57,029 nt of DNA. Source: a virus. The first letter of the stretch is position 1, and every line of letters starts with the position of its first letter. Below are positions 3,054-39,200 of the stretch, piece by piece. The notes under the pieces were generated by a model. That model was not told the DNA's origin. It was given only the letters and a program-made list of their open reading frames with translations, and made no database searches. The DNA lies in IMG/VR virus record IMGVR_UViG_3300018017_000001. One strand, written 5' to 3'. The position numbers and the translations under genes are program-made.

Positions 3054-3068
3054 CTAGCGCTCCTCCGC

Positions 3069-20683: not shown

Positions 20684-20946
20684 GCGAGAAAGTATCAGAA
20701 ACAATAACCCGCCGTCTTCATATGGCGCCTCGCCCCCAAATCGCGGTAGTTTTACACCTAGAAGGTCGCCAGTTGACCGTCGACTGCGATATTAACGATT
20801 CAATCTTCGAGATGCTTTCGGAGGAGAATGTCGCTAAGTGCAAAAATCAAATTATGGAGGGCATCTCGGTCGCGATAGATAATGCAATCAACAGTAAAGA
20901 TCGCAAGCAAATGTGTCGCCGTGTCGCTACAGTACTTCACTCATGA
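20680..20946 (+). CDS. Hypothetical protein
   Basis: 88-aa ORF with an ATGA overlap. Confidence 0.5.
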   Translation: MSEKVSETITRRLHMAPRPQIAVVLHLEGRQLTVDCDINDSIFEMLSEENVAKCKNQIMEGISVAIDNAINSKDRKQMCRRVATVLHS

Positions 20947-21605
20947 GCTTCGCTGATCCATCGCAGCATCATCATAAGCTGGCTGGCATGAAACGGGCAT
21001 TGGCGTCGAAAGACACTCCGGCGCATCTGAAACCGCATCTCGAAAGGCAAGTCGCACGTCTGGAGGGAACGATGAGAAACGTAAAGGGAGCACGGGTTGG
21101 GCAGCGCGGCAGCACGGGAATGGGAGGCTTGCCTCCGGCGAAAGCGATCGTCCGGGCCGTCGACCAGAACGACCGCCTGAACACGGCGAATCCGTACGAC
21201 GAGGAGTCGTTCACGGACAACAGCAATAACCAGGCGATTCCTGAGCCGGGCAGGGTGAACCCGAACGCGGCTGCTCTGGCGGCAGGCTCGGCAAGCCCGA
21301 ACCAGTATGCTCCCAGCCAGCAGGCTCGCGGGATGCAGCGAACGGAACGTGGGCCGGGAATCCATCCGAACGAGACGGCAGTGCGCAAGCTGCCCAGCGC
21401 TCCGGGGCTGAACCGGACCCTTGGAGCCGTGAGGCGCCCCGACACTTCCCGCCGCGGCCCCGGCTTGCTTCCTCGCGGGCCGAACGTGGCGCGTGCGGGC
21501 CAGCGTGGCGAAGGCATCAAGGCCGGCCTAAGTCCGAGCAAGACGGACCGCTGGCAGAGGAAAGGCAGCGCAAACCCAGCGTTCTACGGTGACTGGGGGC
21601 TGTGA
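20943..21605 (+). CDS. Basic low-complexity protein ending ..ANPAFYGDWGL
   Basis: Start at MSFADPSQ (ATGA overlap). 220 aa, rich in G, P, R, N and A. Confidence 0.5.
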   Translation: MSFADPSQHHHKLAGMKRALASKDTPAHLKPHLERQVARLEGTMRNVKGARVGQRGSTGMGGLPPAKAIVRAVDQNDRLNTANPYDEESFTDNSNNQAIPEPGRVNPNAAALAAGSASPNQYAPSQQARGMQRTERGPGIHPNETAVRKLPSAPGLNRTLGAVRRPDTSRRGPGLLPRGPNVARAGQRGEGIKAGLSPSKTDRWQRKGSANPAFYGDWGL

Positions 21606-21618
21606 TGTGTCGCGGCGC

Positions 21619-21795
21619 ATGTGCTCGGAGTGCGGCAAGCGTCCTGCTCAGGTCGGTGACGGTAACTGGCGCAGGAAGATGCCGGGCAAGGTGGCGAAGC
21701 AGCACGATCTGTGCCGGCAGTGTTGGCAGAGCGGTAACGATCAACAGCAAGGAGCGGAGGTGAAACATGGCGGAACTGACAGCGGGAGGTCATAA
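21619..21795 (+). CDS. Small zinc-ribbon protein
   Basis: MCSECGK...CRQCW. The start is uncertain (GTG alternatives upstream). It converges on the HNH gene with a 6-nt overlap. Confidence 0.35.
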   Translation: MCSECGKRPAQVGDGNWRRKMPGKVAKQHDLCRQCWQSGNDQQQGAEVKHGGTDSGRS

Positions 21796-22197
21796 GCTGG
21801 CTTTAGACTTACGCCAGAGCGCTGCTCTACTTATACCGGTGAACAATCCCTTATTCCACGCTGGACGAGGGTGAGCGTGCCGATGACAAAGAACGCAAAG
21901 AGTCTGCAGATTGGAAGGATCGTTATTCTTTCGATTCTTGTCTTTGTGGTGAACGTGCAATTTAGTCGTAGCTCCGCATTGTTCGCAGGCGGATTTTTTG
22001 TGCTTTCGGCAACTCGCTTCTCCTCCGTTCCAGTTAGGGTTATCCTGACCATACCGATGCAGTCCCGGCCTACCGACGTATGCAATAGCTTTCCATTCAG
22101 ACGAACACTTCCTAGAACAAAATACATCCCGGCCTCCAGCCAGTATCGAAGGGAAGGTTTTGAATTCCCGCTTACACCATTTGCAAGTAGTAGTCAT
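21790..22197 (-). CDS. HNH endonuclease, antisense to the surrounding operon
   Basis: CEQCGATTKLHVHHKDKNRKNNDPSNLQTLCVLCHRHAH. ATG at 22197 (MTTTCKWCK). It is the only clear minus-strand gene within the rightward (plus-strand) block 5790..55568. Confidence 0.75.
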   Translation of the reverse strand: MTTTCKWCKREFKTFPSILAGGRDVFCSRKCSSEWKAIAYVGRPGLHRYGQDNPNWNGGEASCRKHKKSACEQCGATTKLHVHHKDKNRKNNDPSNLQTLCVLCHRHAHPRPAWNKGLFTGISRAALWRKSKASL

Positions 22198-22207
22198 AAC
22201 GAGCAAT

Positions 22208-22236
22208 ACTGTATCACAAATGGGGAACTATGGCAA
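22208..22236 (-). promoter_or_regulatory. Candidate promoter for the antisense HNH gene (TTGCCA-N17-TACAGT)
   Basis: Read on the minus strand. The -35 overlaps the ATG of gene 22230. Confidence 0.35.
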
Positions 22237-22448
22237 AGCTAACAACAGAAGCAAGAAACAGACTCCCGGCGAAGGATTTTGCTGGCGCAGATCGGTCTTA
22301 TCCAATTCCCAACGCTTCGCATGCTAGAAATGCTCTGGCGCGCGTGAGTCAGCACGGAACACCTGCGGAGAAGTCACGCGTTCGCTCTGCCGTCCACAAG
22401 AAGTTCCCTGGAATAGGGAAGAACAAAGCCTTCTACGGCGGGGAGTAA
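22230..22448 (+). CDS. Small conserved phage protein ending ..KNKAFYGGE
   Basis: 72 aa. ..LPAKDFAGADRSYPIPNASHARNALARVSQHG.. resembles a widespread small DUF family. I am not sure of its name. Confidence 0.55.
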   Translation: MAKLTTEARNRLPAKDFAGADRSYPIPNASHARNALARVSQHGTPAEKSRVRSAVHKKFPGIGKNKAFYGGE

Positions 22449-22451
22449 GTT

Positions 22452-22628
22452 ATGCCTTGGAACCAAGTCATGTCGAAGTGGAAATCAGGCAGCCTGAAAT
22501 CTGGAGGTTCCGGTAAGCCGGTGAAGTCTCAGAAGCAGGCTGTGGCGATCATGCTCTCAGAAAAGCGCGCCGCTGGTTCCAAGCCGGAATACAGAGCATC
22601 GAAAAACAAAGCATTCTACGGAGGATGA
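22452..22628 (+). CDS. Small protein ending ..KNKAFYGG
   Basis: 58-aa ORF below the track cutoff, translated by hand. ..GSGKPVKSQKQAVAIMLSEKRAAG.. resembles another small DUF family. GGGGAG SD. Confidence 0.5.
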   Translation: MPWNQVMSKWKSGSLKSGGSGKPVKSQKQAVAIMLSEKRAAGSKPEYRASKNKAFYGG

Positions 22629-22630
22629 AC

Positions 22631-22828
22631 ATGGCGAAGTTGTCTGAGATCAAAGCGAAAGTCGAAGCGCTGCACGAAACGGATTACCAGGGTGCAGAGT
22701 TCACGATTCAGGGCAAGCATGTGAAGTCTGTGCTGCTCGACATCGTGAGTTACCTCGAATCCATCGACGGGACAGTTTCTCGGCGCGTGCCGCTCAGCGA
22801 AGTTTCCGAAGTATTCAACGATGTCTAG
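22631..22828 (+). CDS. Hypothetical small protein
   Basis: GGAGGA lies 5 nt before ATG 22631. 65 aa. Confidence 0.5.
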   Translation: MAKLSEIKAKVEALHETDYQGAEFTIQGKHVKSVLLDIVSYLESIDGTVSRRVPLSEVSEVFNDV

Positions 22829-23873
22829 TCTTGCTTTTCCGCATCCCGGCATCCGCGTTCACACGAACGACCACGGCATCACCGTTCTTCGTCTGCACTA
22901 CTCCGCTGACGAGGAGAAGGGCGGCGGGGAGAAGATTTACGTTCCCGAGATCAAGCGCTCGCTTTCGCCCTGGGCCTATGCACAATACAAGCAGATGACG
23001 GACCCGACTCTGTACTTGAAAGAGTACGAGATCGAGGCCGAAGCCGCGCTCGGTGCGCTGATCTACCAACTGGACGAGGAGGCCACGCTTGAAGACTCCT
23101 TCCCGATTCCGAGGACTTGGACGCGCAGGATGGCGCTCGATCCGCATCCTGGCATTCCTGACGCGTTTCTTTGGGTTGCAACCGATCCATGGGGTGACCG
23201 ATGGGCTTATCGAGAACTATGGCCATCGCGTGTCTGCTTTATTTGTGACCCGGAAACCAAGCAAGTGAGAGGCAAAGCAGGGCCGTGTCCGCCCGATGAT
23301 CCGCTGATCCCGATCAAACATTACGTCGAGACGATGAAGTGGCTCGAATCTTCCAGCAACCCGGAGAATCAGGACGAGAACAAGACGCCGTTCGACGAGC
23401 ACATCTTTGCCCGCGTCATCGACTACTCGGCCCGTGCGTTCGGCAAGGGAACGACGGACGATCCTGAACAGCCAAACTTCCAGCAACGCTACGAGCAGTA
23501 TATGCAACTGGAGAAGCTGTCTTGTCCGAGCTTCGACGACGCGAAGAAGGATCACGACGTGGGCTACGAGCGAGTGAACGCGGGACTGAAACCGCGCATG
23601 GTCCGCGATACGAACGGGGAGCCGAAGAAGCGCTCGCAGATTCACATCTTCCGCGACAAATGCCCTGAGTTGATCTATCAGTTGAAGAACGTGCGCAAGA
23701 AGATTCTGACGCCGACGCAGATGATGTCGCAAGACCCGAGCGGGCAGCAGGTTGCCGTGCGTTGTCATCAGGTCGACAACCTGCGCTACGTCGAGATGGC
23801 GAATCCCATCTACATCAACCCGCATCCGCAGCGCTCGCACTTCGAGCCGCTGCAGGAAGGGTTCAGCTACTAG
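22821..23873 (+). CDS. terL: Terminase large subunit, C-terminal (lid plus nuclease) half only
   Basis: 350 aa. ITVLRLHYSADEEKG, YLKEYEIEAEAA, nuclease Asp motifs MALDPHPGIPDAFLWVATDPWGD, ARVIDYSARAF, HQVDNLRYVE. No Walker A or B seen. Confidence 0.65.
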   Translation: MSSLAFPHPGIRVHTNDHGITVLRLHYSADEEKGGGEKIYVPEIKRSLSPWAYAQYKQMTDPTLYLKEYEIEAEAALGALIYQLDEEATLEDSFPIPRTWTRRMALDPHPGIPDAFLWVATDPWGDRWAYRELWPSRVCFICDPETKQVRGKAGPCPPDDPLIPIKHYVETMKWLESSSNPENQDENKTPFDEHIFARVIDYSARAFGKGTTDDPEQPNFQQRYEQYMQLEKLSCPSFDDAKKDHDVGYERVNAGLKPRMVRDTNGEPKKRSQIHIFRDKCPELIYQLKNVRKKILTPTQMMSQDPSGQQVAVRCHQVDNLRYVEMANPIYINPHPQRSHFEPLQEGFSY

Positions 23874-26709: not shown

Positions 26710-28074
26710 ATGATCACGGAATCACAAGCCGCGCCGAGCGGAACCACACCGTCTGACGGCGCAGCGCAGAGCGGAACCACACCCTCTGTCCCGCAAGAAT
26801 TCTCATCGTTTCTCGGCGTTGAACCCGAGACCTTGCCTTCTCTCCAGCCCGAACAGAAACCGGAACCCACGGGCGCGGAAGCCGAACCACAGGCGGAAGC
26901 AGGAGCCGAGGCTGAGGTCGAAGAACAACCCGCAGAAGCGGAAGCCGGAGCACAGGCGGAAGAGCTACCTGCGTTGGAGGAAACGGACGACGACTGGCTG
27001 CTGACCACAGAACAGAAGAAGGAGTTTCCCGACGATCAGTTGGCGGAGTACGCGAGGCGCCGAGGCTACAACTGGGAGCAGATTCAAGGCGACAAGAGCC
27101 TGAAGCGGCTGCTCCAAGACAAGCTCAACAGCGACATCCTGATCGCGCAACAGCGGCAGGCCGAGGCGGACGAGGGCTTCTTCGGAACGGGAGAAGAACA
27201 GCAACTTCCGGAAGAAGAAGCCGCAGCGGAAGCCGAGCCTGCTCCACAAGTCGATCCCCGGCAGGAGTATTACGCGGGAGTCGACAGACTCGTTCAGCAG
27301 TACGACCAGAGTACGTTGAAGGAAATGGGCAACGGATTGCTGAACGCTATGGGCGTGAAAACGGACGACAAGTTCATCGGAGACTTGACGCGAAGGCTCG
27401 AAGACCCGAATCTTCCTCCGCAAACGCGGGCGGAGATTCAGCAGCACGTGGCCTTGGCGCGAAGCTCGGAGAAGATCGGTCAGACGCTGGCGCGCTATGG
27501 AACTGATCTGACGTTGACGCTGCTTCGCTCGCCCGAGATCATTCAGCAGGCGATCGAAACGGTCGCTCCCGGAATGCTCGGAGCGTTTCAGGAAGCTCAG
27601 TCGATGCGGACCTGCGCGCAAGCGTGGGCGCAAGTCCGGGGAAGGCAAGACCAGCAGGGAAGGCAGGTGTACGAGAACCTTCCAGCCTACGGGACGCCCG
27701 AGTTCAGGGCGCTGGTCTACAAGGCGGAGCGGCAGCTTGGGCTCGGGAAAGACGAACTCGGGTCGATGACTTTCCGCGACGCCTACGGGAACCCTCTCCC
27801 TGCGGATCAGAACGCTTTGCGCGGATACGCCTTGGTCGCGCGGGTGGCGAGCGGACAGAAAGTGACTCCGCGAGCGGTGACGCAGGCCGTGCAGGCAGGG
27901 CGCCGTCAGGAACAAACGCAGCAGCAGAGGCGCGCCGCGGGGCGCGCGTTGGGGGCCGGTGCAACGAGCCGCCAGTTCGAACAGCCCGCTCAGGAAGACG
28001 CGGTGGGATCGGCATTGCGACAAGCGATCCTGGACCAGAACGAGTCAGGCCGCATCTTGCCGAAGGGGATGTGA
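26710..28074 (+). CDS. Scaffolding-like protein
   Basis: 454 aa. Very acidic E/A/P/Q-rich N-terminus and helical Q/R/E-rich body. It lies directly upstream of the major capsid gene. Confidence 0.45.
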   Translation: MITESQAAPSGTTPSDGAAQSGTTPSVPQEFSSFLGVEPETLPSLQPEQKPEPTGAEAEPQAEAGAEAEVEEQPAEAEAGAQAEELPALEETDDDWLLTTEQKKEFPDDQLAEYARRRGYNWEQIQGDKSLKRLLQDKLNSDILIAQQRQAEADEGFFGTGEEQQLPEEEAAAEAEPAPQVDPRQEYYAGVDRLVQQYDQSTLKEMGNGLLNAMGVKTDDKFIGDLTRRLEDPNLPPQTRAEIQQHVALARSSEKIGQTLARYGTDLTLTLLRSPEIIQQAIETVAPGMLGAFQEAQSMRTCAQAWAQVRGRQDQQGRQVYENLPAYGTPEFRALVYKAERQLGLGKDELGSMTFRDAYGNPLPADQNALRGYALVARVASGQKVTPRAVTQAVQAGRRQEQTQQQRRAAGRALGAGATSRQFEQPAQEDAVGSALRQAILDQNESGRILPKGM

Positions 28075-28103
28075 AGGACTGAAGGCGGCGGAGGGCACAA
28101 ACC

Positions 28104-29354
28104 TTGGCTGAACAAAACATAAGAACATTCGCCGACTACGCGACCGAAGGTTCTTCGGTCCGCGACGTGAGCGTCGACATGCTCCTGCTGGAGCCTGACC
28201 GAACGCCGCTCTACGTCTTGACGAACAACATGAAGCGGAAGAAGTCCGTCTACAACCCGACGATTGAATGGCCCGAGGATCAGGATTTGCCAATGCTCGG
28301 GACCGTATCGAACGGCACGACGAACCTCTCTTCCGCCGCGACGAACATCCCGGTGCAGGACGTGACGATCTTCGGAGTGAACGACGTGGTGCAGATTCCC
28401 ACCTTCGGCTTGACGACGGTAGGGACCGGCATCGAGGAACTCGCTCTGATCACCACGGTCACGATCGGCGGTGGAACGCCTTCGACGGTTTCGTACCAGT
28501 TGGGCGCGGTCGCCGGAACGATCACCGTCACGCGCGGCTTCGCCGGCACGACTCCAGGATCCGTGGGAGCAACGCAAGCGATCCGCATCGTGGCCACGGC
28601 GGCGCAGGAAGGATCGGCCATCCAGACGCCTCGCTCTCCGTACCTCAACCTGAAGACGAGCTACGCGCAGACGTTTGAAACGCCGATCCAGATCACGCTG
28701 CAAGCGGCCTCGACCCGTCAGTACTACGACAGGAACGAGCGGGCAAGACTGCAAATGCTCGCCATGCGCCGCGCGAAGCTGGAACTGGAGGATGCCGGAA
28801 TCTTCGGCGTTGCCTCTTCGAGCGTCAGCGGCACGTCGACGAGGCTGACCTCGATGGGCATCCGCTCGATCATCTCGCCGTTCGTCACCGACATGGGCAC
28901 GACGGCGACCTATCTCTCGTTCCTGACCGCGAACGAGTTCACGTTCCGTTACGGCTCGCCGCAGAAGCTGCTGATCGCGTCTCCGCTGTTCAAGACCGCT
29001 CTTGACTACTGGGCCGCGAACAAGCAGTTGGTGAAACCGGACATCGACCTCTTCGGCGTCTCGCTGAAGAAGTTCATCACGTCGAACGGCACGTGGCTCC
29101 TGGCGAACAACTTCAACTTCGGAGATTTCGGCGCGTCGACGAACTACTCGTTCGAGGCTCTGGGCATCGATCTTCCGTCGATCGAGTTCTGCCCGCTGTC
29201 CGAGAACGGGTTCAACAACGACACGCACCTGATCACGAACTACAACACGACGAACCCGAAGATCATCTACGATCTCGTGCTGACGATCGCGGGTTGGCGT
29301 TGTAGGCACCCTGCGAGACACGCCCGTTTTACAAATTTGCAGGCGTTCTCGTAA
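28104..29354 (+). CDS. Major capsid protein (HK97 fold, DUF5309/SU10-like)
   Basis: TTG start with GGAGG 9 nt upstream. The N-terminus ..DVSVDMLLLEPDRTPLYVLTNNMKRKKSVYNPTIEWPEDQDL matches the characteristic start of this capsid family as I recall it. 416 aa. Confidence 0.75.
   Translation: MAEQNIRTFADYATEGSSVRDVSVDMLLLEPDRTPLYVLTNNMKRKKSVYNPTIEWPEDQDLPMLGTVSNGTTNLSSAATNIPVQDVTIFGVNDVVQIPTFGLTTVGTGIEELALITTVTIGGGTPSTVSYQLGAVAGTITVTRGFAGTTPGSVGATQAIRIVATAAQEGSAIQTPRSPYLNLKTSYAQTFETPIQITLQAASTRQYYDRNERARLQMLAMRRAKLELEDAGIFGVASSSVSGTSTRLTSMGIRSIISPFVTDMGTTATYLSFLTANEFTFRYGSPQKLLIASPLFKTALDYWAANKQLVKPDIDLFGVSLKKFITSNGTWLLANNFNFGDFGASTNYSFEALGIDLPSIEFCPLSENGFNNDTHLITNYNTTNPKIIYDLVLTIAGWRCRHPARHARFTNLQAFS
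29330..29342. promoter_or_regulatory. Palindrome family member TACAAATTTGCAG (half-site variant)
   Basis: Lies at the 3' end of the capsid gene, in frame as ..TNLQA. Confidence 0.45.
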
Positions 29355-29363
29355 AACCTGAGA

Positions 29364-29405
29364 CCGTGGGCGCTTTTCGGGGGGAAGGGTGCCCACGGAG
29401 TTTTC
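29364..29405 (+). terminator. Hairpin after the capsid gene (CCGTGGGC ... GCCCACGG) followed by AGTTTT
   Basis: 8-bp perfect stem with a 19-nt loop and a short T-run. It lies 10 nt after the capsid stop. Confidence 0.4.
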
Positions 29406-29416
29406 AAGGAGAGAAC

Positions 29417-29935
29417 ATGCACACGGCACCGGAAGAGTACAAAGCGAAATGTGAAGTATGCAAGGAAGCCGTCGCGTACGACGAGTCGAAGGACTGGGCG
29501 AAATGCACGCGCCTTCCAGGCCATCACCGCGTCGAGGAGAAAACCTATTACCATCTCGGCGGATCTCACCTGGCGAACCTGATCGACCGACGCGGATGGT
29601 CTCCGATGGTCATCCTGCGCGCCGGAACGGACATCGTCATCAACCGGGGGACGGGCGAGAAGGCGATCTCTCCGACGCTGAAGGTCATCTTCATGATGCA
29701 GAAGGTGACGACGAGCGATCCGGAGATTCAACTGCTTCTGGAGATGAAGGGCGACCGCGACATCGTCTGGGGGAAAGAAGGCGAGGAGCAGTGGATGAAA
29801 ACCTACTTCACGCCCGACCAGCAGGCCGCGAGGAAGCGCGCGGAACTCGAAGCGCTCGACCGCAAGATCACGGAGCAGAACGCTCTGCTGGCCGAAACGC
29901 AACAGAGGACGCAGAAGCAGGCGGCGAGGACGTAG
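29417..29935 (+). CDS. Hypothetical protein (Cys/His N-terminus, coiled-coil C-terminus)
   Basis: AAGGAGAG SD. 172 aa. Confidence 0.55.
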   Translation: MHTAPEEYKAKCEVCKEAVAYDESKDWAKCTRLPGHHRVEEKTYYHLGGSHLANLIDRRGWSPMVILRAGTDIVINRGTGEKAISPTLKVIFMMQKVTTSDPEIQLLLEMKGDRDIVWGKEGEEQWMKTYFTPDQQAARKRAELEALDRKITEQNALLAETQQRTQKQAART

Positions 29936-30346
29936 ATGATCTGCCGGGGATGCGGCGCGGAAGCTCGGCGCACGGTGACTGTGCTCGACGCCCGCGCCGA
30001 CGTGCTGAAGGAATCCTGCGAGCATTGCGACCCGCAGCACGAGCGTTTCCGCGATCCTTCCGACCGGCGTCTTTGGGACAGCTACGAGGTCGAGCCTGAC
30101 CGCTACTATCCCAAAGACTCGAACGGAGTCGCCCGGGCGAAGGACGAACTCGTGCAGGACACGCTCGACGGGCTGAACAACAACGGGAAGTCCGACGACG
30201 AGTGGATGATCGCGAAACGCAAGAACCGCAGGACCGAACCGCTCTCGCCCGAGGAGATCAGGGCGACAGAAAACTTCGTGCGCGAGCATTTGATCCCGCA
30301 GATCGAGCGGGCGAAACTGAACGAGCAGTACCAGCACCAGGAATGA
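29936..30346 (+). CDS. Hypothetical protein with CxxC...CxxC
   Basis: 136 aa. The ATG directly follows the upstream stop. Confidence 0.5.
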   Translation: MICRGCGAEARRTVTVLDARADVLKESCEHCDPQHERFRDPSDRRLWDSYEVEPDRYYPKDSNGVARAKDELVQDTLDGLNNNGKSDDEWMIAKRKNRRTEPLSPEEIRATENFVREHLIPQIERAKLNEQYQHQE

Positions 30347-32055
30347 CTCAGAAGTCCGACCATTTCGCCGACCTCGTCAGCGCTGAGTTGAAGCGCGTCA
30401 AGGACTTGAACCCTCTCGACGTGCTTCATCACCAGAAGAAACTGGAGAAGATGTTCAACACTGCCGAAGGCCAAGAGGCTTTCCGCAGGGTCACCGGCTT
30501 GCGCGATGCGACGTTCGTAAACCACGATCTTTCGCCGCAGCAGAAACTTCCCATCGTTGCTCTGCTGATGCCTTCCTACAAGCGTCCGGCTCCGCAATGC
30601 TGGGCTGCTCTGCAGCAGATGATCGCGGCCAGTCAAGGGCATTGCCAGTTGTACATGGAGCCTACGATTCAGCAGTCCATCGTTCACTGGACAAGGAACT
30701 ATGCCGTCAGCAGTCTGATCAAGACAGGGAAGCCGTGGGATTACATTCTGTTCATGGACGACGACATGGTTCCACAACCCGACACGCTGATCAAGTTGCT
30801 GGCCCACAAGAAAGACGTGGTGGCGGCCGCCTGTACTGTTCGCGTCGACCCTCCGGTACCGAATTTCCGCGTCTATGATCCGGACGAGCAGGTTTTCTTC
30901 ACTTGCATGGAATGGGACCGGGAAGGTTTGGTTGGCGGGAAAGAGTTTGGCGGCGGCACTGGCGTGATCCTGCTTTCGCGGGAAGCGATGACCCGCGTTG
31001 GCGAGTATTACATCAACTGCAAGTACGAGCAGAAGTATTACGGCTTTTCAGGTGAAGCTCTCGACAAACTCCAGACCCGCAGGCAGGGTGAAGCGCGGAA
31101 GACGAACGACTTCTGGTGGTTCGAGTTCCTGAAGCAACCACAAGGCCGAGGAGAGTTCGGAGAGGATATTTCCTTCTGCTTCAAATGCATCGAGCTGGGC
31201 ATTCCGGTGTTCGTCGACACGACGGTCACACCCGGCCACGTCGGTGACTACGCATACTCTCTCGCGGACTTCTATGACTACCGCGACGTTCTGCTGGAGC
31301 GGGACAAGCGCAGCGCGGAAGGCACTCATCAGGCAGCGATGCGGGAAGCAAAATACACGGCGAAGATCAGCATCCTGTTCCCCACGCGCAACCGTCTCGG
31401 AAACGTCGCCCGCCTGCTTGAATCCCTGAAGGCAACGTCTTTCCGCCTGCCGGAAGTCGTGCTGTACATAGACGAGGATGACAACTCCTATCAGGCGCTG
31501 TACGCCGACAGTCCGGAGAACGTGAAGTTCGTTCGCGGTCCAAGGAAGACGCTCTCTGAATGCTGGAATGATTGCGTGAAGGTGGCGTCGGGCGAGATTC
31601 TGATGGCTGGAGGAGATGACCTGATCTTCAGGACGAACGGGTGGGACGAGATCGTCGCGAAGTGCTTCGAGAACCACGCTGATAAGCTGATTCTCGTTCA
31701 TGGCAACGATGGCTATTGGAAAGAGAAGTTCGGCACGCATCCATTCCTTCACCGCCAGTGGGTGGAAGCGGTGGGCTATTTCTTCCCGCCGTATTTCTCT
31801 TCCGACTTCAACGACACATGGCTGAACGAGGTCGCGAACGAGCTTGGGCGTCGAGTCTACCTGCCGTTCCTCACGGAACACATGCACCCGCTATGGGGCA
31901 AAGCCGATTGGGACGAGACGCACAAAGAACGCCTTGCTCGGCACGACCGGGACAAAGTCGAGGAGCTGTACAAGTCTCTCGCCCCGCGCCGTGCCGAGGA
32001 CGTTCAGAAATTACGGCAGGCGATTGAGGCGAAGAGAATCGCACTGGTTGGATAA
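30343..32055 (+). CDS. Two-domain GT-A (family-2-like) glycosyltransferase
   Basis: Start at MTQKSDHF (ATGA overlap). Domain 1: VALLMPSYKR..ILFMDDDM..GEDISFCFKC. Domain 2: ISILFPTRNR..VLYIDEDDN..GGDDLIF. 570 aa. Confidence 0.65.
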   Translation: MTQKSDHFADLVSAELKRVKDLNPLDVLHHQKKLEKMFNTAEGQEAFRRVTGLRDATFVNHDLSPQQKLPIVALLMPSYKRPAPQCWAALQQMIAASQGHCQLYMEPTIQQSIVHWTRNYAVSSLIKTGKPWDYILFMDDDMVPQPDTLIKLLAHKKDVVAAACTVRVDPPVPNFRVYDPDEQVFFTCMEWDREGLVGGKEFGGGTGVILLSREAMTRVGEYYINCKYEQKYYGFSGEALDKLQTRRQGEARKTNDFWWFEFLKQPQGRGEFGEDISFCFKCIELGIPVFVDTTVTPGHVGDYAYSLADFYDYRDVLLERDKRSAEGTHQAAMREAKYTAKISILFPTRNRLGNVARLLESLKATSFRLPEVVLYIDEDDNSYQALYADSPENVKFVRGPRKTLSECWNDCVKVASGEILMAGGDDLIFRTNGWDEIVAKCFENHADKLILVHGNDGYWKEKFGTHPFLHRQWVEAVGYFFPPYFSSDFNDTWLNEVANELGRRVYLPFLTEHMHPLWGKADWDETHKERLARHDRDKVEELYKSLAPRRAEDVQKLRQAIEAKRIALVG

Positions 32056-32592
32056 ATGTCAGTCCTAGAACAACGGCTCCCTTGGAATTTCATCCCCGCC
32101 GATGGCATCGGGTATGTGAATAGCGAAGACTTCCTGACTTGGCCGGACGGTGTCGTGCTGCACTTTATCCGAACATTTGAGACGCATAGATATCAGAGTT
32201 GGCGAAACTTCAATAATCTCTGGCGCTCAACTCTGGGGCTAGACAGCACACATGGTAAGCGCGTGAAAGACTTCGGATGTGGATTCGGGATCGAAGCTCT
32301 GCAATTTGCCAAGAGCGGGAACGAAGTCCTCTTGTCCGATATTTTCCCTTCTAACGTGCAGGCGGCAGAACGAGTGCTTAGGCTCTCTGGTTACACACCT
32401 GCCCCTGATGGTCCGGTGGATGTGTTCTATTCCAATGGGGTACTTCATCACTCGCCGCAGATGCGAGAACTTCTAGAGAAAGAAGTCGCCAACTTAAATC
32501 CAGGAGGAGAAGTCAGATTGTTGCTCTATTCTGACCGGGCATGGATTCTTACGACAGCAACCAGAGTTCCGCCTATCGAGGACGATGTCTAA
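32056..32592 (+). CDS. Class I SAM-dependent methyltransferase, terminated by an in-frame TAA
   Basis: VKDFGCGFGIEALQFA, LLSDI, FYSNGVLHH, LNPGGEVRLL. The same frame continues after TAA 32590..32592 (see next feature). Confidence 0.6.
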   Translation: MSVLEQRLPWNFIPADGIGYVNSEDFLTWPDGVVLHFIRTFETHRYQSWRNFNNLWRSTLGLDSTHGKRVKDFGCGFGIEALQFAKSGNEVLLSDIFPSNVQAAERVLRLSGYTPAPDGPVDVFYSNGVLHHSPQMRELLEKEVANLNPGGEVRLLLYSDRAWILTTATRVPPIEDDV

Positions 32593-32766
32593 ACACATCC
32601 TGCCTTCAGGCAATTCGTCGCGCAGATGGATGATGTCGGAGAGTACGCGGACTGGTACAGCCGCGAGAAACTGGAATACCGAGTTAAAGATTTACTGACA
32701 GTGAAAGAGTTCAATTACATCACGCTGGACGGACGCTATGCCACGGCTATTCTGGAGCCTGTCTAG
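32593..32766 (+). other. In-frame continuation of the methyltransferase ORF after the TAA
   Basis: It translates to THPAFRQFVAQMDDVGEYADWYSREKLEYRVKDLLTVKEFNYITLDGRYATAILEPV. Its TAG overlaps the GTG start of the next gene by 1 nt (TAGTG), which is the coupling pattern typical of this genome. Confidence 0.5.
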
Positions 32767-34130
32767 TGGCTAAGGTCTGCCTGCTCGACTCCCCCAGCTG
32801 GCTGCTTTTCAACCCGCTCAGCTTCCTCCACCTCGGGGCGCTCTATTTGGCCGGTTCGTTGCGCGAAGCAGGCCACGACGTTCGCGTGCTCGACTGCCAC
32901 CAGATCACGAGCTGGAACCGAGAGAAGAAAGAACTCATCATCCACCACGAGATGCTGGAGCCGTGCGACGTTCTCGGCGTCTCCGCGACGACGGCAAACG
33001 TGCATTGGGGAAAGCAGTTGGCGAAGGCGTGGCCCGCGAAAGTGAAAGTTCTCGGCGGATCTCACGCGTCCTACATCGTCAACGGACCACATCAGCAGTT
33101 CAAGCGGGCAAGCTACTTCGACGGATTCGACTTCCTGATGGTGAACGAGTCGGAGCATTCCTTCGCGGAGTTCTGCGGCCGCTGGGACCGAGGCGACGTT
33201 TCCGGGACTCCGAACCTGTGCTGGTTCAACGCGCTCGGGATGCTTCAGCAAAACCCTTGCTCGCCGCTTCCTGACGTGAATGCTCTGCCCGGTCCTGCGT
33301 TCGATCTGTGGCCGACGCCATTCTATCGCGGAAGGTTCACGACGAAGGATTACGACGGGCAAGGCGGACAGGGGATGACGGCGCAGTTGTTCTCGGCCCG
33401 CGGGTGTCCTTACGGATGCAGGTTCTGCGCCGACGCGCGGACGAAGATCAGGGAAGAAAGTTTCGAGCAGATCGAGAAGCAGGCAAAACAACTGGCATCT
33501 CTCGGAGTTTCTTGCCTTCGCATCTACGACGACGTGTTCACGATCAAAGCGGACCGCTGCCGCAGGATCGCCGACATCCTAGCGGACTACGGCATCTGGT
33601 TCCGGGGCAACACTCGCGTGAACTTGACTGACCGCAGCTTGTTCGAATATCTCGCCAGCAAGGGATGCGTCGAGATGGGGTTCGGCGTCGAGCATGGTTC
33701 GGCCCGGATGCTGAAGGCGATGGACAAGGGCACGACGCCGGAGAAGAACACGGAAGGCGTCAAGATGTGCCAGGACGCGGGCATGATCGCGAAGGCTTAT
33801 CTCATGGCTGGATTTCCGGGTGAGACGCTGGAGTCGCTCGACGAACTGGAGGCATGGATGCTTAATGCGCGTCCGGACGCGGTTAGTTGGAACTTGTTCC
33901 AGCCGTATCCAGGATCGGACGTTTGGATTCATCCTGAGCGCTATGGAGTGACTCTGCCGCCGAACGCTTTCGAGAAGTTCTGGCAGACCGGAGACGAAGT
34001 GACGGAAGAGTCTGTCTATCTTGATCTGCCGACGATAGGAAAAGCGGATTTAGTGCGGCGCTTCGGAGAGATCGCTCGCGTGATCGACACGGAAATTCAG
34101 CACAGAGATCGTTCGATGGTGATGGCGTGA
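32766..34130 (+). CDS. B12-binding-domain radical SAM enzyme
   Basis: 454 aa with a GTG start. N-terminal Rossmann-like B12-type domain. SARGCPYGCRFCAD is the CxxxCxxC cluster motif. Confidence 0.75.
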   Translation: MAKVCLLDSPSWLLFNPLSFLHLGALYLAGSLREAGHDVRVLDCHQITSWNREKKELIIHHEMLEPCDVLGVSATTANVHWGKQLAKAWPAKVKVLGGSHASYIVNGPHQQFKRASYFDGFDFLMVNESEHSFAEFCGRWDRGDVSGTPNLCWFNALGMLQQNPCSPLPDVNALPGPAFDLWPTPFYRGRFTTKDYDGQGGQGMTAQLFSARGCPYGCRFCADARTKIREESFEQIEKQAKQLASLGVSCLRIYDDVFTIKADRCRRIADILADYGIWFRGNTRVNLTDRSLFEYLASKGCVEMGFGVEHGSARMLKAMDKGTTPEKNTEGVKMCQDAGMIAKAYLMAGFPGETLESLDELEAWMLNARPDAVSWNLFQPYPGSDVWIHPERYGVTLPPNAFEKFWQTGDEVTEESVYLDLPTIGKADLVRRFGEIARVIDTEIQHRDRSMVMA

Positions 34131-34140
34131 AGGAGGGCGA

Positions 34141-35415
34141 ATGCGCGTAGGTTTCGTGGGATGTGGAAAGTTGGGACTTATGGTCGCTCTTGCCACGGAG
34201 AGCAAAGGCCACGAAGTCAAGGGTTACGACATCGATCCGAAGATCGCGGGGTACCTCAAGAACCGTGAGATTCCGTTCGAGGAAGAACATTCGTCGGAGC
34301 TTCTGGCGAAGACGCAGATGGAGATGGTTCCGCTGAACGTGCTTTGCCGCTGGGCTGACCTTCTGTTCCTCGCCCCGCAAACTCCGCACCAGCCGAAGTT
34401 CGAGGGCGCCACGCCGCTACCCGAAGACCGCGCCGATTTCGACTACAAATACCTCGTCGATTGCGTCAAGGCCGTCGACCTGGCTCTGAACGGAACGACG
34501 GCGAAGACGTGCGCCATCATCAGCACCGTGCTTCCGGGGACGCTGGAGCGGGAAGTCCTGCCGTTGCTGAAGTCGCGGTTCCGGCTCGTCTACACGCCGC
34601 AGTTCATCGCGATGGGAACGGTGTATCACGATTTCCTCAATCCCGACCTCGTGCTCGTCGGAGTTCACGATGCTTACGCATTGGAAGTCATCACGAAGTT
34701 TTACGAGTCGATGGGCGTGACGAACAAGCTGTTCGTCACCGACCTGAAGACGGCGGAAGGCATCAAGGTTCTCTACAACACGTTCATCACGACGAAGACC
34801 GTGCTGGCGAACCTCTACGGCGAGATGGCGGAGCGGCTCGGCATGAACGTCGAGCACATCTACAAGGCATTGACTTCGGCGACGGGACGGCTGATCTCAC
34901 CGCTGTACCTGAAGGCGGGCATGGGTGACGGTGGAGGTTGTCATCCTCGCGACAATATCGCGCTCTCATGGGTCGCCCGCCAGCATAATCTTTCGTTTGA
35001 CTTCTTCACTGCTCTGATGACGGCACGGGAGAAACACTGTGAGTGGCTCGCCGATCTGATCTCGGCGGAAGTCGAAGATCAACTCGACCGCGAAGGCCGT
35101 CATCTCCCGGTCGTGATCCTCGGGCGCGCGTTCAAGCCGGAGACGAACATCGAGACCGGAAGCCCAGCTCTGCTGCTCTCGTCGATCCTGAAGCGCCGCG
35201 GCATCGCGCACGGATGCTTCGATAATTACATCCCTCGGCATCCGGGAATCTACTTCATCGGAACGCAGCACGAGCGCTACAAGCACATAAATTTCCCTCC
35301 CGGTTCCGTCGTGATCGATCCGTTTCGTTACATCGAGCCGCAGGTCGGAGTCATTCTCAGAAGCATAGGATCGGCTCGGGAAACCGTTCGGGAAGAGGCG
35401 GTGGTGAATGGCTAG
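34141..35415 (+). CDS. Nucleotide-sugar (UDP-glucose/GDP-mannose type) dehydrogenase
   Basis: 424 aa. MRVGFVGCGKLGLMVA Rossmann motif. The catalytic-Cys motif GGGCHPRDN corresponds to GGxCFPKD of the family. Confidence 0.7.
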   Translation: MRVGFVGCGKLGLMVALATESKGHEVKGYDIDPKIAGYLKNREIPFEEEHSSELLAKTQMEMVPLNVLCRWADLLFLAPQTPHQPKFEGATPLPEDRADFDYKYLVDCVKAVDLALNGTTAKTCAIISTVLPGTLEREVLPLLKSRFRLVYTPQFIAMGTVYHDFLNPDLVLVGVHDAYALEVITKFYESMGVTNKLFVTDLKTAEGIKVLYNTFITTKTVLANLYGEMAERLGMNVEHIYKALTSATGRLISPLYLKAGMGDGGGCHPRDNIALSWVARQHNLSFDFFTALMTAREKHCEWLADLISAEVEDQLDREGRHLPVVILGRAFKPETNIETGSPALLLSSILKRRGIAHGCFDNYIPRHPGIYFIGTQHERYKHINFPPGSVVIDPFRYIEPQVGVILRSIGSARETVREEAVVNG

Positions 35416-36217
35416 CGGCCAAGGTTTCGGCGGATTCTCGAAGCAGCAGATGATCCAGGTCGCGAACCTGCGCACGGAACAGCGCGCGAAGACTCTCGAT
35501 CAGGACAGCGAGTTCTACACCGCGCTGCAAGAGCTTTGCCTAGAACGGAGATGGTGGTGGCGTCGCAGGATCGGAACGTTCCAGATGACTGCCGGAACGT
35601 CGAAGTACAACTTGAGCAGCATTCAGGACCAGGCCGGGCAGGCCCTCACGGACGTGCAGCAGATCGCGAAGAACGGCTTCAAGATTTATTATCCCGGAAA
35701 CGTCGTCTCGGGAGCATCGCAGATTCCCTCGCCGTGGAACAACGTGCCGTACGCGAAGCCGGAGCCGGTCTTCGATCCCGACGTTCAGGACGAGATCCTC
35801 GCGCTGCAAAATCAATACCCTCCGGCAACGCCAGTGAGGTTCTTCCTGATTCCCGGCGAGACGATGCTGCTGATCGTCGATCCGATCCCGGACCAGAGCT
35901 ATCCCTGCTCGCTCGCTTATTGGGCCGTCCCGAACTACACTTCGGATGATTCCGACGAGACCGTGCCGCTGCTACCGAACTGGATGCAGCCTGCGCTGAT
36001 CAAGAAGCTGGAGATGCACTTCTGGGCGTTCAAGGTCAACCAGGGCGACACGTCGAAATATGAGATTGCTGAGGCGGAATACGAGAAACTGATCGAGAAG
36101 GCTTCCTTGTACACGCAGTTCGCCGACGGCTTCGTCGAGGAGTTCAAGAACAAGGACTGGAACGACTCCATCCGCAGCACAGGCGGCGGAGGGTTCGGCG
36201 GCGGAGGGTATCTGTAA
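35408..36217 (+). CDS. Virion structural protein (adaptor or tail-tubular-A-like by position)
   Basis: 269 aa with an 8-nt overlap to the upstream gene. Ends in GGGGFGGGGYL. Function is inferred from gene order only. Confidence 0.35.
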   Translation: MASGQGFGGFSKQQMIQVANLRTEQRAKTLDQDSEFYTALQELCLERRWWWRRRIGTFQMTAGTSKYNLSSIQDQAGQALTDVQQIAKNGFKIYYPGNVVSGASQIPSPWNNVPYAKPEPVFDPDVQDEILALQNQYPPATPVRFFLIPGETMLLIVDPIPDQSYPCSLAYWAVPNYTSDDSDETVPLLPNWMQPALIKKLEMHFWAFKVNQGDTSKYEIAEAEYEKLIEKASLYTQFADGFVEEFKNKDWNDSIRSTGGGGFGGGGYL

Positions 36218-39200
36218 ATGCCGTTGAAGCCTGTAGACAGTTACGTCAGCGGAGGCGTGGATTCGCGCTCGAACCCGATCAACATGCCTCCGGATTCGTA
36301 CCTGCTGCTCGAAAACTTCTGGCCGCAGCAGGACGGAAGCCTCCGGTTGCGCGACGGCTACGTTCTGTTCGCCGAAGGAGTTCCGGACGTTTCCGTATAC
36401 TCGATCCAGCCGTTCACCGGCCCCGGTCCTGCGTACGCTCCGCTCGTCATGTTCTGGCAGAACATGGTGCCCTACGTCGTTGATCCCTCGACGGGAGAAA
36501 TGACGAGCCCATCAGTTCTAGGAACTCCGATCCAGTCTTCCGCAAGGTTCTGCTATTTCTATACCGACGGACATCTGCACGCCTTCAACGGAACGGACGC
36601 GAAGTGGTACGACGGCTACGTCTGGCGGGACATCGGACTTCCCCAGCCGGACCTTGACTCCGCGGCGAACATTACAATCGTCGAGTCGGTGAACGAGTTC
36701 AGCGCGACGCAGGCTGCAGCGGTGACGTTGACGCTCGCTGGGGGAGGGTCGTTCCCGGCAGACGCGATAGGTCGGTACTTCTATGCAGCTTTCTACGACA
36801 AGAACGCGCATGAGATAGGACCGGCGACGATAGCGCTCGGGCCGAACGACGGATTCGTGCAGTTCGCGCTGAACAACGAACTCCAGATCGCCGGGTTGCC
36901 CTCGACCGCCTCGACGAATCCTTCATGGGTGAAGCTGCCCGCATTGACGCCGGACGGAGGAGACATAGCGAACTTTGTCGTCACATCTACGAAGGTGATC
37001 ACCGCAGGAACGCTCGGGTCTGCTGGAACTGTGACGCTGACGGAATCTTCCGCTTCCACCAGCGGCGGGGTGTTCTCCAGTCCTTCGTTCAACGTCGCGC
37101 TTTCCGCCGCAAATCTCAATTCTGGTCCAGCCACGGCTACGGTGAGCGGAGCGGAGCAAACAATTCCCGGGTCTGGCGCCGTCTATCAGAACACGACGGT
37201 CACGGTCACCGGGGTTGAGCGGTCGATGGAAGTTCCGATCACCGGCGGAAGTTACAAGCTGGTGTATGACGGCGGAACGCTGACGATCAAAATCACCAGC
37301 AACCAGGGTTACAACAAATCGTTCCAAACTGGCTACGCAGCGCCGTCGACAGACGCAACGATAGCCACTGCGCTCGCTTCCGTGATCAACGCGCCCGGTC
37401 TCGGCGGAGGCGGGAACGTACTGAAGGCCACGGCCTCGGGTTCGACGGTTCTGATCACCTTGGGGGCTGGAGCGGGAGAGGCCACATACACGATCTCCGT
37501 CTCCATGATTTCGACCTCTCCGTACTTCGCCGGAGTTTCTTCTTTCAATCTGTCTTTCAACAACCTGAACTTCGGCGACTTGACGGTGTACGACACCGGG
37601 ACCGTGACGGTGAAGGTGGCGGGAGTCGCCGCGGTCGCCGATTACGGAGCCGGAGACACGCCTTCGACGGTCGCAGTGAAGCTCGCGGCGGCGATCAATT
37701 CCCTGCCCAACCCCGTGGCCACCGCGTCATCCTCCGGGGCGGTCGTGACGATCAGTTCCGCGACTACAGGCGTCTACACGATCTTAACCGCAGCGGCCCA
37801 TGGATTCTCCGTCGGCGACGTCATCGGATTGTCGAACACTGGTAACGCTGCGTACGAAGGGCAGATTTTCACGATCGTGGCGGTGACGACGAACACGTTC
37901 ACGATCTTCGTTCCAAACGCTCTGAACGCGATACAGCAAGGCACAGCCCAGAAACTTCTGGCCATAGCCGACAGCGCGACGAGCGGAACGATCGCGGCTC
38001 CGAACTTCTTCACTCCTTACGAAGTGAATCTTCCGAGAGGAATCGCGGCGTCGAGCGTGGGAGGTCCGCAGCCCGGATACCAGTTCTATCTCTCGCTCTA
38101 CATGATGAACGCGGGAGGGCACGTCGGGAACCGCGTGGCGATCGGCCCGAGGATCGCGCCCGCGGTCAGAACGAACGTCAGAATCCTCGGGGCGATTCCC
38201 GTCACGGAGAACGAACAATATCTTCTCGTCGGAAGGACGGGAGATGGAGCGGAAGTCCCTTACGCTTTGATCGACGACAACGGGAACTGGATCACGGAAG
38301 TCGGGACGTTCGGGGACTGGCTGATCACGTCCGCGCAGATCGACGGGAATTCCGAGTTGCCTTACCGGAACTTTCCTCCTCCGGGGACGCTGGATTACAA
38401 CCAGCAACTCGCGAACCTGGCAGGAGGCGCCGCGCAGAATCCTCCTCTGCCTAGCACGTTCTCGATTGCTTGGGTCGAGAGCGATCACTGCTGCGGGGTG
38501 ATAGCCGGAGGGCCGACGATCTACCGCAGCGGATCAGCACTTGATATGAGAGAAGGGCAGTTCGTCGGTCTACCTGAACAGAGTTGGGATCCAGCCGACA
38601 TCGAGACTTTTCCGACGGGCGAGCCGATCACTTGCGGGCAAGGTTACCAGCAGGAATCGTGGGTCTACACGGCGGAAGACTGCGCGGTGCTCGTCGAGTT
38701 GGCCGGCGAACTGAGCTGGGAAGGTCCGTGGAACATCGGGGCGTGCGGGCAGTACGCTTGGACGCGAGGCTGGAAGAACCTTCCGTTCTGGATCAGCCAG
38801 GAGAAGCAGCTCGTCACCGTCTCGCTCGGAGGGACGACTCAGGTCGGCGGCACGTACACGGCGGATCAGGCAGGGCCAGTGGCGATTTCCGACGAGTACG
38901 AAGCCGCACTCCTCTCGCAGATCGGTGACGCTTACTTGTCGCAGGTCGAACTCGCTTACATTCGCATCCCCCAGAAGCGGGTCGAAGTGTTGCGGATCAG
39001 CTGCCTCGACGCGAACGGGAATCCGTTCACCGTCATCCACGACTTCAACCTGAGGGGCGGAGACGCTCCTTACGGGAAAGCCTATCAGGAGATTTTCCTC
39101 GGCCCGCTTTCGGCTGTTTACACGCAGCAGTTCGTCAGGGACGGGAACAACAAGGGACAAATCTTCTGCGGCGGATACGATGGAAACATTTATGAACTGT

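Follow-up and report, generated by a model that had tools for sequence, protein, structure and literature searches.

A core glycosyltransferase gene and an exchangeable sugar-tailoring slot in the head module of an uncultivated SU10-like podophage lineage

Introduction

To our knowledge, glycosylation of the phage particle has been demonstrated experimentally in a few mycobacteriophages only, where it alters recognition of the virion by antibodies. Virion glycosylation cassettes within phage structural operons are already known. In Corndog, an O-methyltransferase gene and three glycosyltransferase (GT) genes have the portal gene on one side and the protease gene on the other, and the enzymes are produced in infected cells but absent from virions (PMC4351075). 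Cassettes of this kind (Corndog gp35-38; Che8, Myrna) reportedly add glycans to subunits of the capsid and the tail tube (Freeman 2023, cited in PMC11600133 and PMC12619734). Here we describe a comparable arrangement in a viral DNA of 57,029 nucleotides, IMG/VR record IMGVR_UViG_3300018017_000001 (the window throughout this text): an island of sugar-modification genes at positions 30343-35415 on the + strand, between the major capsid and head-tail adaptor genes of what appears, from its SU10-type capsid, portal and adaptor, to be an uncultivated podovirus-like, SU10-like podophage.

Given the known structural-operon cassettes, the locus is not a new kind of system. What is new is that a core GT of the head module defines a whole uncultivated podophage clade, that this core gene adjoins a hot spot with interchangeable sugar-tailoring cassettes, and that the cassette in the window joins a sequence-isolated, apparently virus-restricted family of B12-type radical S-adenosylmethionine (SAM) enzymes with an enzyme of the UDP-glucose dehydrogenase type.

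Like the mycobacteriophage cassettes with their O-methyltransferase and GT genes, the island lies inside a virion structural operon, and here the genes are coupled with no intervening terminator; no terminator-like site was seen on the + strand between 28 and 36 kb. It differs in that its GT shows no sequence relationship to those of mycobacteriophages (tblastn, 50,697 phage records), in the SU10 podovirus-like virion type with its capsid-to-adaptor slot, and in the UDP-glucose dehydrogenase-type and B12-radical SAM enzymes, which the cluster O cassette of PMC4351075 lacks.

A second described system is that of chlorovirus PBCV-1, whose A064R protein, of GT-GT-methyltransferase architecture, builds a methylated glycan on the major capsid protein Vp54 (PMC7019647). 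Compared by description, the two systems have in common a virus-encoded, cytoplasmic, multi-domain protein that contains two GT domains, and a methyltransferase function; A064R differs in its rhamnose linkages, its eukaryotic virus, the fusion of the methyltransferase to the GT domains, and the lack of a radical SAM enzyme. The head module resembles that of phage SU10 (Kuravirus), with which the window shares Pfam families and the order portal, scaffold, capsid, slot, adaptor and large tail/nozzle protein. In SU10 the slot holds one Ig-like protein gene followed by a terminator, whereas in the window it holds two small genes (o172 and o136), the GT gene and the sugar cassette.

Layout of the head-module locus

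The four genes of the island had been assigned in a first-pass annotation as a double GT, a SAM methyltransferase, a B12-binding radical SAM enzyme and a nucleotide-sugar dehydrogenase lying within the structural operon. An open reading frame (ORF) listing and a motif check placed all four genes and their motifs at the coordinates given there, and searches with profile hidden Markov models, together with a structure model of the GT, bore out each of the domains. The location inside the head-tail module was likewise borne out by the SU10-type capsid gene upstream and the adaptor gene downstream. The features of the locus are as follows.

28104-29354, + strand: SU10-like major capsid gene (SU10_MCP, PF17236, 70.6 bits; alignment with relatives); upstream boundary of the slot; candidate acceptor
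29417-29935, + strand: o172, 172 amino acids (aa), directly after the capsid gene; core trio; gene also called in assemblies L098 and L120-L125
29936-30346, + strand: o136, zinc-ribbon protein (CxxC...CxxC) with an RRTxP motif; ATGA overlap with the GT gene; core trio
30343-31320, + strand: core GT-A domain, aa 1-326 of the GT (AlphaFold2 model), with an N-terminal three-helix segment; MDDDM at 30754-30768
31321-32055, + strand: accessory GT2 domain, aa 327-570 (Pfam GT2), fused to the core GT; DxD-like IDEDD at 31468-31482
32056-32766, + strand: class I SAM methyltransferase gene (Pfam); in-frame TAA at 32590-32592; motif I DFGCGFG at 32269-32289
32766-34130, + strand: B12-binding-domain radical SAM enzyme (Pfam and NCBIfam); B12-like domain at about 32832-33170, radical SAM core at about 33396-33851, CxxxCxxC at 33405-33428
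34141-35415, + strand: nucleotide-sugar 6-dehydrogenase from the UDP-glucose/GDP-mannose dehydrogenase family, identified with Pfam, PHROG and NCBIfam and by PDB alignment; overlap of 8 nucleotides (nt) between its 3' end and the adaptor gene
34150-34176, + strand: NAD motif GFVGCGKLG of the dehydrogenase (motif position)
34930-34956, + strand: catalytic-Cys motif GGGCHPRDN of the dehydrogenase (motif position)
35408-36217, + strand: SU10-like head-tail adaptor gene (SU10_adaptor, PF24175, 29.7 bits, cutoff 27); bounds the slot on its downstream side

Profile searches identified an SU10_portal-type portal gene and a scaffold-like gene together with the capsid gene upstream of the slot; the adaptor gene is followed by genes for a 1126-aa tail protein and a tail fibre. 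In addition to the two overlaps listed, the GT and methyltransferase genes abut in TAAATG, and the radical SAM and dehydrogenase genes are separated by a 10-nt spacer containing AGGAGG. From these junctions most genes of 30343-35415 appear to be translationally coupled, and they would be co-expressed late, with the virion proteins. None of the island proteins contains a hydrophobic 19-residue window of the membrane-helix type, no flippase or exporter is present alongside the island genes, and all island enzymes are predicted to be soluble.

Close relatives of this phage come from IMG/VR and other metagenome contigs and not from GenBank phages. A megablast search of GenBank phages with positions 28000-37000 gave no match, and tblastn with the capsid protein gave one weak match only, to a Clostridium phage at 26% identity.

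A core GT gene next to an exchangeable slot

The conservation of the locus was assessed in an IMG/VR scan that was seeded with the capsid protein, and was thus unbiased for the GT, by mapping the window proteins with tblastn. Loci were regarded as assessable (n = 31) if the capsid identity was 34% or more and the sequence reached far enough downstream. In every one of these 31 loci the N-terminal half of the GT (GT-N) was encoded directly after the capsid gene, and in 30 of them a homologue of o136 was found upstream of GT-N, usually together with o172. At the one locus at which tblastn missed o136 (L145), a 145-aa zinc-ribbon ORF occupies the same position. In loci with a capsid identity of 28% or less, o172, o136 and GT-N were all not found.

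Two further features set the N-terminal half apart from the genes that follow it. In many relatives, on contigs of about 55-65 kb, it forms a stand-alone protein of 320-360 aa, and at seven loci (L128, L129, L133, L138-L140 and L144) the adaptor gene comes directly after it; elsewhere among the relatives its fusion partner is not GT2 but a Galactosyl_T, GT1 or methyltransferase domain. The presence of the GT-N gene and the two zinc-ribbon genes in the loci of relatives leads us to assign o172, o136 and GT-N to the core and 31321-35415 to an accessory part. The island of five kilobases proposed at first is thereby divided: its N-terminal GT domain belongs to the clade core, and the GT2 C-terminal domain, which is the first part of the cassette, the methyltransferase, the radical SAM enzyme and the dehydrogenase make up an accessory cassette of about 4 kb, which the closest relatives lack.

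The two small core genes are conserved in sequence as well as in position. Homologues of o136, which always sits directly upstream of the core GT, have in common the CxxC...CxxC zinc ribbon at the N-terminus, the motif P(S/T)D(K/R)K(I/L)W and, towards the C-terminus, the basic motif RRTxP(L/M). Homologues of o172 come after the capsid gene in relatives, and in their alignment the Cys12/Cys15/Cys30/His37 site is invariant; o172 also has a coiled coil at its C-terminus, and it had no match in Pfam, PHROG or the PDB, a profile search of the PDB included.

The slot between GT-N and the adaptor gene, which forms the conserved downstream boundary in relatives, is a hot spot for sugar cassettes. Some relatives carry the order GT2-(methyltransferase)-(GT2)-radical SAM-dehydrogenase, as in the window; others combine the radical SAM gene with a NAD-dependent epimerase/dehydratase, or hold a Methyltransf_24 O-methyltransferase, a GT-B enzyme and an epimerase/dehydratase in varying combinations. 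Still others have a methyltransferase-GT2 fusion, only an O-methyltransferase, proteins as large as 1000-1200 aa with no recognised function, or nothing at all. The synteny check recommended with the initial annotation thus returned a fixed capsid-GT-N order (31/31) and a content of the slot that swaps. The radical SAM and dehydrogenase genes of the cassette are not present in the closest relatives (capsid identity 80-83%), and phages with a capsid identity of 35-47% share the radical SAM enzyme at 80-82% and the dehydrogenase at 60-65% identity. This pattern fits gain and loss of the cassette within the clade, with slow evolution of the enzyme also contributing.

Two loci deviate in structure. 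At L134:12033-13111 the N-terminal half of the core GT is split by an insertion of about 1.1 kb, possibly an intron, intein or mobile element. On a 79-kb contig (L095:13900-16200) the order GT-radical SAM-dehydrogenase-GT2 is followed not by the adaptor gene but by fragments of a periplasmic-binding protein and a RidA-like protein; this boundary could be that of a chimeric assembly or of an integration.

The dual GT

The GT gene (30343-32055, + strand) encodes a 570-aa protein, with MDDDM at aa 138-142 and IDEDD at aa 376-380. Its C-terminal half is above threshold for the Pfam family Glycos_transf_2 (51.7 bits against a cutoff of 23.3, aa 343-465) and matches phrog_14945 ('glycosyltransferase', E = 1.3e-41). 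The N-terminal half did not reach any Pfam gathering threshold, the Anp1 match being sub-threshold (23.3 bits against a cutoff of 28.8), and it also matches phrog_1574. In an alignment of 47 homologues, D139-D141 and about 35 other positions of the N-terminal half are at least 90% conserved, and D139-D141 are invariant in an alignment of 12 N-half sequences.

An AlphaFold2 model built on the 47 homologues (predicted local distance difference test score, pLDDT, of 89.9) contains two alpha/beta domains of the GT-A type at aa ~70-305 and ~340-515 and a low-confidence linker at aa 327-334. Foldseek matched the model to many GT-A enzymes with a probability of 1.00. The best neighbours in the PDB are dual GT-A enzymes (E = 8e-13 to 1e-7; 9-14% identity) and include the polysaccharide co-polymerases K4CP, LARGE1 and PmHS2 as well as the collagen glycosyltransferases Mimivirus R699, LH3 and 9u7i, the last of which shares its sequence entry with procollagen galactosyltransferase 1. 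All of these share the tandem GT-A architecture, and several use UDP-glucuronic acid (UDP-GlcA), which the adjacent dehydrogenase could supply; R699, LH3 and procollagen galactosyltransferase 1 are protein glycosyltransferases. They differ from the phage protein in that the orientation of the domains is not conserved and that domains of the window type occur apart in relatives. With whole-chain template modelling (TM) scores of 0.16-0.29, these matches indicate architecture and not specificity.

In BFVD, the best match was a GT2 protein of Mimivirus LCMiAC01 (44% identity over about 240 columns, with a low root mean square deviation, rmsd), followed by M1IPF3 (33% identity, 243 columns, likewise at a low rmsd), which may be a chlorovirus protein. 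Judged from the length of the matches and the GT2 annotation, both probably correspond to the GT2 C-terminal domain. A phmmer search of the PDB with the 570-aa protein found no match, and a profile of the N-terminal half reached procollagen galactosyltransferase 1 around the DxD motif, at a non-significant E of ~0.5 only. In the tblastn search of 50,697 phage records, the GT matched 72, from Streptomyces, Arthrobacter, Pelagibacter, Actinoplanes and Marine phages; no mycobacteriophage was among them, and no record covered 80% of the query. All 15 of the 15 matches listed cover the C-terminal domain only (aa 337-561); they come from Pelagibacter and Streptomyces phages.

The B12-binding radical SAM enzyme

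The radical SAM domain was recognised well above threshold (PF04055, 76.3 bits against a cutoff of 29.5), and the N-terminal B12-binding domain marginally (PF02310, 35.4 bits against 32.1, aa 23-135). The cluster motif CPYGCRFC occupies aa 214-221, and C214, C218 and C221 are invariant in 16 homologues. A phmmer search of the PDB with the B12-like domain (aa 1-200), aimed at the cobalamin-ligand motif, gave no match; the best PDB match of the enzyme was AprD4 (E = 2e-12), restricted to the core. With an N-terminal B12-type domain followed by a CxxxCxxC core, the phage protein resembles the class B radical SAM enzymes (PhpK, BchE, HpnJ, GenK-type C-methylases and AprD4) and differs from them in its scores. 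All 24 NCBIfam matches are far below the curated cutoffs, the best being PhpK with 96 bits against 600, and the enzyme falls in none of the characterised NCBIfam subfamilies (PhpK, ApyD, BchE, HpnJ, HpnR, AprD4 and others).

At E ≤ 1e-10 the enzyme has more than 300 homologues in metagenomes; identity is 52% or higher throughout the best 120, which come nearly all from metagenomes. Among 1.84 billion representatives of clusters at 50% identity, the family comprises three full-length sequences, with scores of 568, 518 and 398 bits; lower scores belong to fragments no longer than 361 aa, until a further full-length protein appears at 199 bits (33% identity). Among the matches listed from 185,579 species genomes the best cellular one is 30% identical, and a scan of genome contigs for prophage copies and host clues gave, among the matches listed, distant radical SAM genes of cellular origin only, none of them above 30% identity. 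The family is tight, stands isolated in sequence space and appears to be restricted to viruses.

Nucleotide-sugar genes adjoin the radical SAM gene in all 14 distinct viral contexts examined, but at just 10 of 80 loci of distant cellular homologues. In SU10-like phages the neighbour is a dehydrogenase or an epimerase/dehydratase; in phages of ~70-170 kb the gene is accompanied by an NTP-transferase, several epimerase/dehydratases, a TylC3-type C-methyltransferase, a 2-oxoglutarate (2OG) oxygenase and sometimes a second radical SAM gene. This association indicates that the enzyme very probably acts on a nucleotide sugar or glycan. C-methylation is the commonest role of the cobalamin-dependent radical SAM class, of which several class B members act on sugars or aminoglycosides, and BchE, HpnJ and AprD4 illustrate that other outcomes are possible. 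For the phage enzyme C-methylation is a leading guess only, and nothing shows that it methylates.

One member of the family, the 800-aa protein P0211, carries an intein (Pfam Intein_splicing, PT-HINT) at the first Cys of CxxxCxxC, and a gap of about 1 kb lies at the same position in L011:10650-11686. On viral contigs of about 70-170 kb (L012, L096, L097, which equals L007, and L010), the radical SAM gene is part of a much larger sugar pathway with an NTP-transferase, three or four epimerase/dehydratases, a TylC3-type C-methyltransferase and additional methyltransferases, a 2OG-Fe(II) oxygenase and, in some cases, another radical SAM gene; this set of genes resembles a full pathway, encoded by the phage, to a deoxysugar with heavy tailoring.

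The nucleotide-sugar dehydrogenase and the interrupted methyltransferase

The dehydrogenase is above threshold for the N-terminal and central domains of the UDP-glucose/GDP-mannose dehydrogenases (PF03721, 69.1 bits against a cutoff of 27; PF00984, 60.4 bits against 25.4) and matches phrog_9148 ('UDP-glucose dehydrogenase', E = 8.7e-71). Its GGGCHPRD aligns with GGSCFPKD, the catalytic-Cys motif of the UDP-glucose dehydrogenase 3vtf. The C-terminal UDP-binding domain was not matched by PF03720, yet the alignment with 3vtf extends to aa 324-367 of the 3vtf chain. Among NCBIfam models, TIGR03026 gave 174.1 bits against a cutoff of 189.8, and the best partial matches were the UDP-glucose 6-dehydrogenases AglM (124 bits) and TuaD (105 bits), both far below the equivalog cutoffs.

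The methyltransferase ORF (32056-32592) scores above threshold for four Pfam class I methyltransferase models, among them Methyltransf_12 (37.6 bits, cutoff 30) and Methyltransf_11 (36.1 bits, cutoff 21.2), and contains the GxGxG-type motif DFGCGFG at aa 72-78. In the window the gene is interrupted by the in-frame TAA at codon 179, beyond which the frame runs on for 57 conserved codons to 32764-32766; the products would be a protein of 178 aa, followed by these in-frame codons, from which an internal ATG would yield 46 aa. Since the frame continues, the apparent 173-nt gap before the radical SAM gene represents the severed 3' part of the methyltransferase gene. At a related locus, L006, the homologue is a single read-through ORF with 67% identity across 226 residues. 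Two haplotypes exist at this codon among assemblies of one and the same phage (99.9% identity): TAA occurs in four (the window, L098, L121 and L124), and TCA (Ser), which leaves an intact 236-aa methyltransferase, in three (L120, L122 and L123). Given the two haplotypes, the stop is a real polymorphism, not an error of assembly. The stop renders methylation by this enzyme doubtful in the present genome, in which it is probably inactive, and the TAA/TCA split looks like an on/off polymorphism of a glycan methylation step. In addition, the G+C content at third codon positions (GC3) is 0.55 in the methyltransferase gene versus 0.72-0.83 in the neighbouring genes, which suggests a more recent or foreign origin than that of the rest of the cassette.

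The intact haplotype also differs between the capsid gene and o172, where window positions 29337-29406 are replaced by 727 bp (L120:2264-2990). The replacement encodes a 224-aa HNH-type endonuclease, recognised by eye from DH..N..CxxCN H motifs, and is accompanied by synonymous changes in the last capsid codons beside it. It is a presence/absence polymorphism of a homing endonuclease gene, and across the seven assemblies compared its presence goes together with the methyltransferase allele.

Proposed virion glycosylation and alternative functions

The function favoured at first was virion glycosylation with an oxidised and/or methylated sugar, and after the comparative analysis it is still the reading we prefer, with the acceptor remaining inferred. 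We consider that synthesis of a modified uronic sugar in the cytoplasm and its attachment to a virion protein has about an even chance of being correct. In the core layer, GT-N would act in the cytoplasm while particles are being assembled and attach a first sugar to a surface protein of the virion. In the accessory layer, the dehydrogenase would oxidise a host UDP-hexose to the uronic acid, the radical SAM enzyme would modify the nucleotide sugar or glycan by radical chemistry (C-methylation being the leading guess), and the GT2 domain would transfer the modified product onto the primer sugar; the methyltransferase, where intact, would cap the glycan, a step that is probably off in this genome.

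What favours glycosylation of the virion is the inheritance of the core GT with the capsid gene in 31 of 31 relatives and the retention of these genes in the head module across deep divergence. The slot also corresponds to the position of SU10_010, the gene beside the capsid gene of SU10, which encodes an Ig-like domain protein; that protein may be a head decoration protein, and the slot would then be a place for capsid-surface decoration functions. The predicted solubility of all enzymes and the lack of membrane and export components next to them, the lack of partner genes for DNA hypermodification among the ORFs tested, and the Corndog precedent argue in the same direction, and the chlorovirus A064R precedent lends further support.

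Several observations weigh against this interpretation. No acceptor was identified, and the capsid protein lacks an S/T-rich C-terminal tail of the mycobacteriophage kind. The timing of expression is derived solely from gene position. The fold neighbours of the GT comprise polymerases and protein glycosyltransferases alike, so that the fold does not discriminate between them, and no sequence relationship of the GT to those of mycobacteriophages could be detected. The radical SAM enzyme stays at 96 bits or less in subfamilies whose cutoffs are 251-750, its best PDB match, AprD4, is a non-methylating diol dehydratase, and in the larger phages it lies among sugar genes with structural genes not visibly adjacent. 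The AlphaFold2 model of o172, from a 9-sequence alignment, is too poor to interpret (pLDDT 52.5).

The S/T-rich tail proteins downstream had been put forward as plausible acceptors, and nothing singles them out. In the 1126-aa tail/nozzle-like protein, S+T makes up 22-36% of most 50-aa windows between aa ~250 and 600 (36965-38017), and the tblastn matches of the protein break at about aa 270-510 in all relatives, which indicates a hypervariable, probably surface-exposed insert at its centre. We rejected this centre as evidence for an acceptor, as it is hypervariable in all relatives regardless of the cassette. A small S/T/G-rich insertion in the capsid protein, shared with the nearest relatives, was rejected as a sign of an acceptor too: it forms no C-terminal extension and does not correlate with the type of cassette.

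Among the alternatives, the cassette could make or remodel a polysaccharide of the host-cell surface late in infection, the dual GT-A protein acting as a co-polymerase that builds a glycosaminoglycan-like polymer from UDP-GlcA supplied by the phage dehydrogenase, as in the hyaluronan synthesis of chloroviruses; such a polymer could block superinfection or keep progeny off debris. The top Foldseek matches in the PDB are indeed two-domain GT-A polymerases that use UDP-GlcA (K4CP, E = 8e-13; LARGE1; PmHS2), a gene of the UDP-glucose dehydrogenase type lies in the same cassette, and PBCV-1 encodes both a UDP-glucose dehydrogenase and a hyaluronan synthase (PMC7019647). We nevertheless regard this function as unlikely. 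The TM-scores to the polymerases are 0.25-0.29 with an rmsd above 20 Å, so only single GT-A domains match them, and the occurrence of the N-terminal half alone in many relatives, with the C-terminal half swapped for unrelated domains in others, argues that the two GT domains are not an obligate co-polymerase. At no fewer than seven loci the N-terminal half is alone with the adaptor gene directly after it, unlike the obligate GT-A pair of K4CP and PmHS2. Membrane segments, an exporter and lipid-carrier enzymes are absent, and the genes stay in the head module across deep divergence. Rather improbable, in our judgement, is a non-glycosylating role in assembly or regulation for the core GT-A-like and zinc-ribbon proteins, with the accessory enzymes as metabolic morons that act on a host pool, for instance of nucleotide sugars or of a small molecule, and have no target in the virion. 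It would account for the lack of a recognisable function in o172 and o136, the scores of the GT N-half below every Pfam gathering threshold, and a methyltransferase that is dispensable in part of the population; it is opposed by the conservation of the DxD motif and about 35 further N-half positions in the 47 homologues, which fits a retained catalytic site, and by the glycan-pathway logic of the alternative slot cassettes, each of which pairs a transferase with sugar-tailoring enzymes.

Phage GTs can also glycosylate DNA (Pyle 2024, as cited in the review PMC12619734), and in Streptomyces phage SF3 a distant B12-radical SAM gene (25% identity) is accompanied by thymidylate kinase and NUDIX genes. 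We judge glycosylation or hypermodification of the phage DNA against restriction to be very improbable here. Among the ~50 ORFs scanned, a few small ORFs being left out, neither a hydroxymethyl-pyrimidine synthase nor a related gene turned up; the recognisable DNA-modification genes are methyltransferases of the N6/N4 type in the replication arm; the cassette lies in the head module and not beside the replication genes; and the radical SAM family is always found beside nucleotide-sugar enzymes and never beside nucleotide-metabolism genes. On this counter-evidence, an obligate co-polymerase, O-antigen seroconversion and DNA glycosylation were all rejected as the leading reading.

A bolder extension of virion glycosylation, which we consider possible but rather doubtful, is that the radical SAM enzyme is the founding member of a virus-exclusive family that performs an undescribed radical modification of a nucleotide-activated uronic or deoxy sugar, for example C-methylation at an unactivated carbon, the product being displayed on capsids; cassette swaps in the slot and on/off alleles, such as that of the methyltransferase stop, would then give rise to different 'glyco-serotypes' within one phage lineage, by analogy with O-antigen variation in bacteria. 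The family is in any case a concrete candidate for new carbohydrate radical chemistry, and its presence implies reliance of the phage on host cobalamin and on low-oxygen conditions. More generally, the locus suggests that a lineage of environmental podophages has a head-module GT as a core gene next to a swappable tailoring slot. If this is true, glycans on virions would count as a widespread, diversifying trait of the phage surface and would matter for adsorption and stability and for how hosts, grazers and immune systems recognise the particle.

Other genes in the window

Upstream of the portal gene, the ORFs at 20913-21605, 21871-22242 and 22821-23873 had no family match in the libraries tried, and a terminase large subunit was not recognised among the ORFs in this part of the window (20913-23873). 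No tRNA genes were found in the window. Genes noted at 2280-3629 (- strand), 14692-16358 and 19997-20683 encode a pentapeptide-repeat protein with DUF5758, a DUF7666 protein, two DNA methyltransferases of the N6/N4 type, whose genes are adjacent, and a PCMT-like methyltransferase. The window also encodes DnaB, a PD-(D/E)XK exonuclease and a RecT-like protein.

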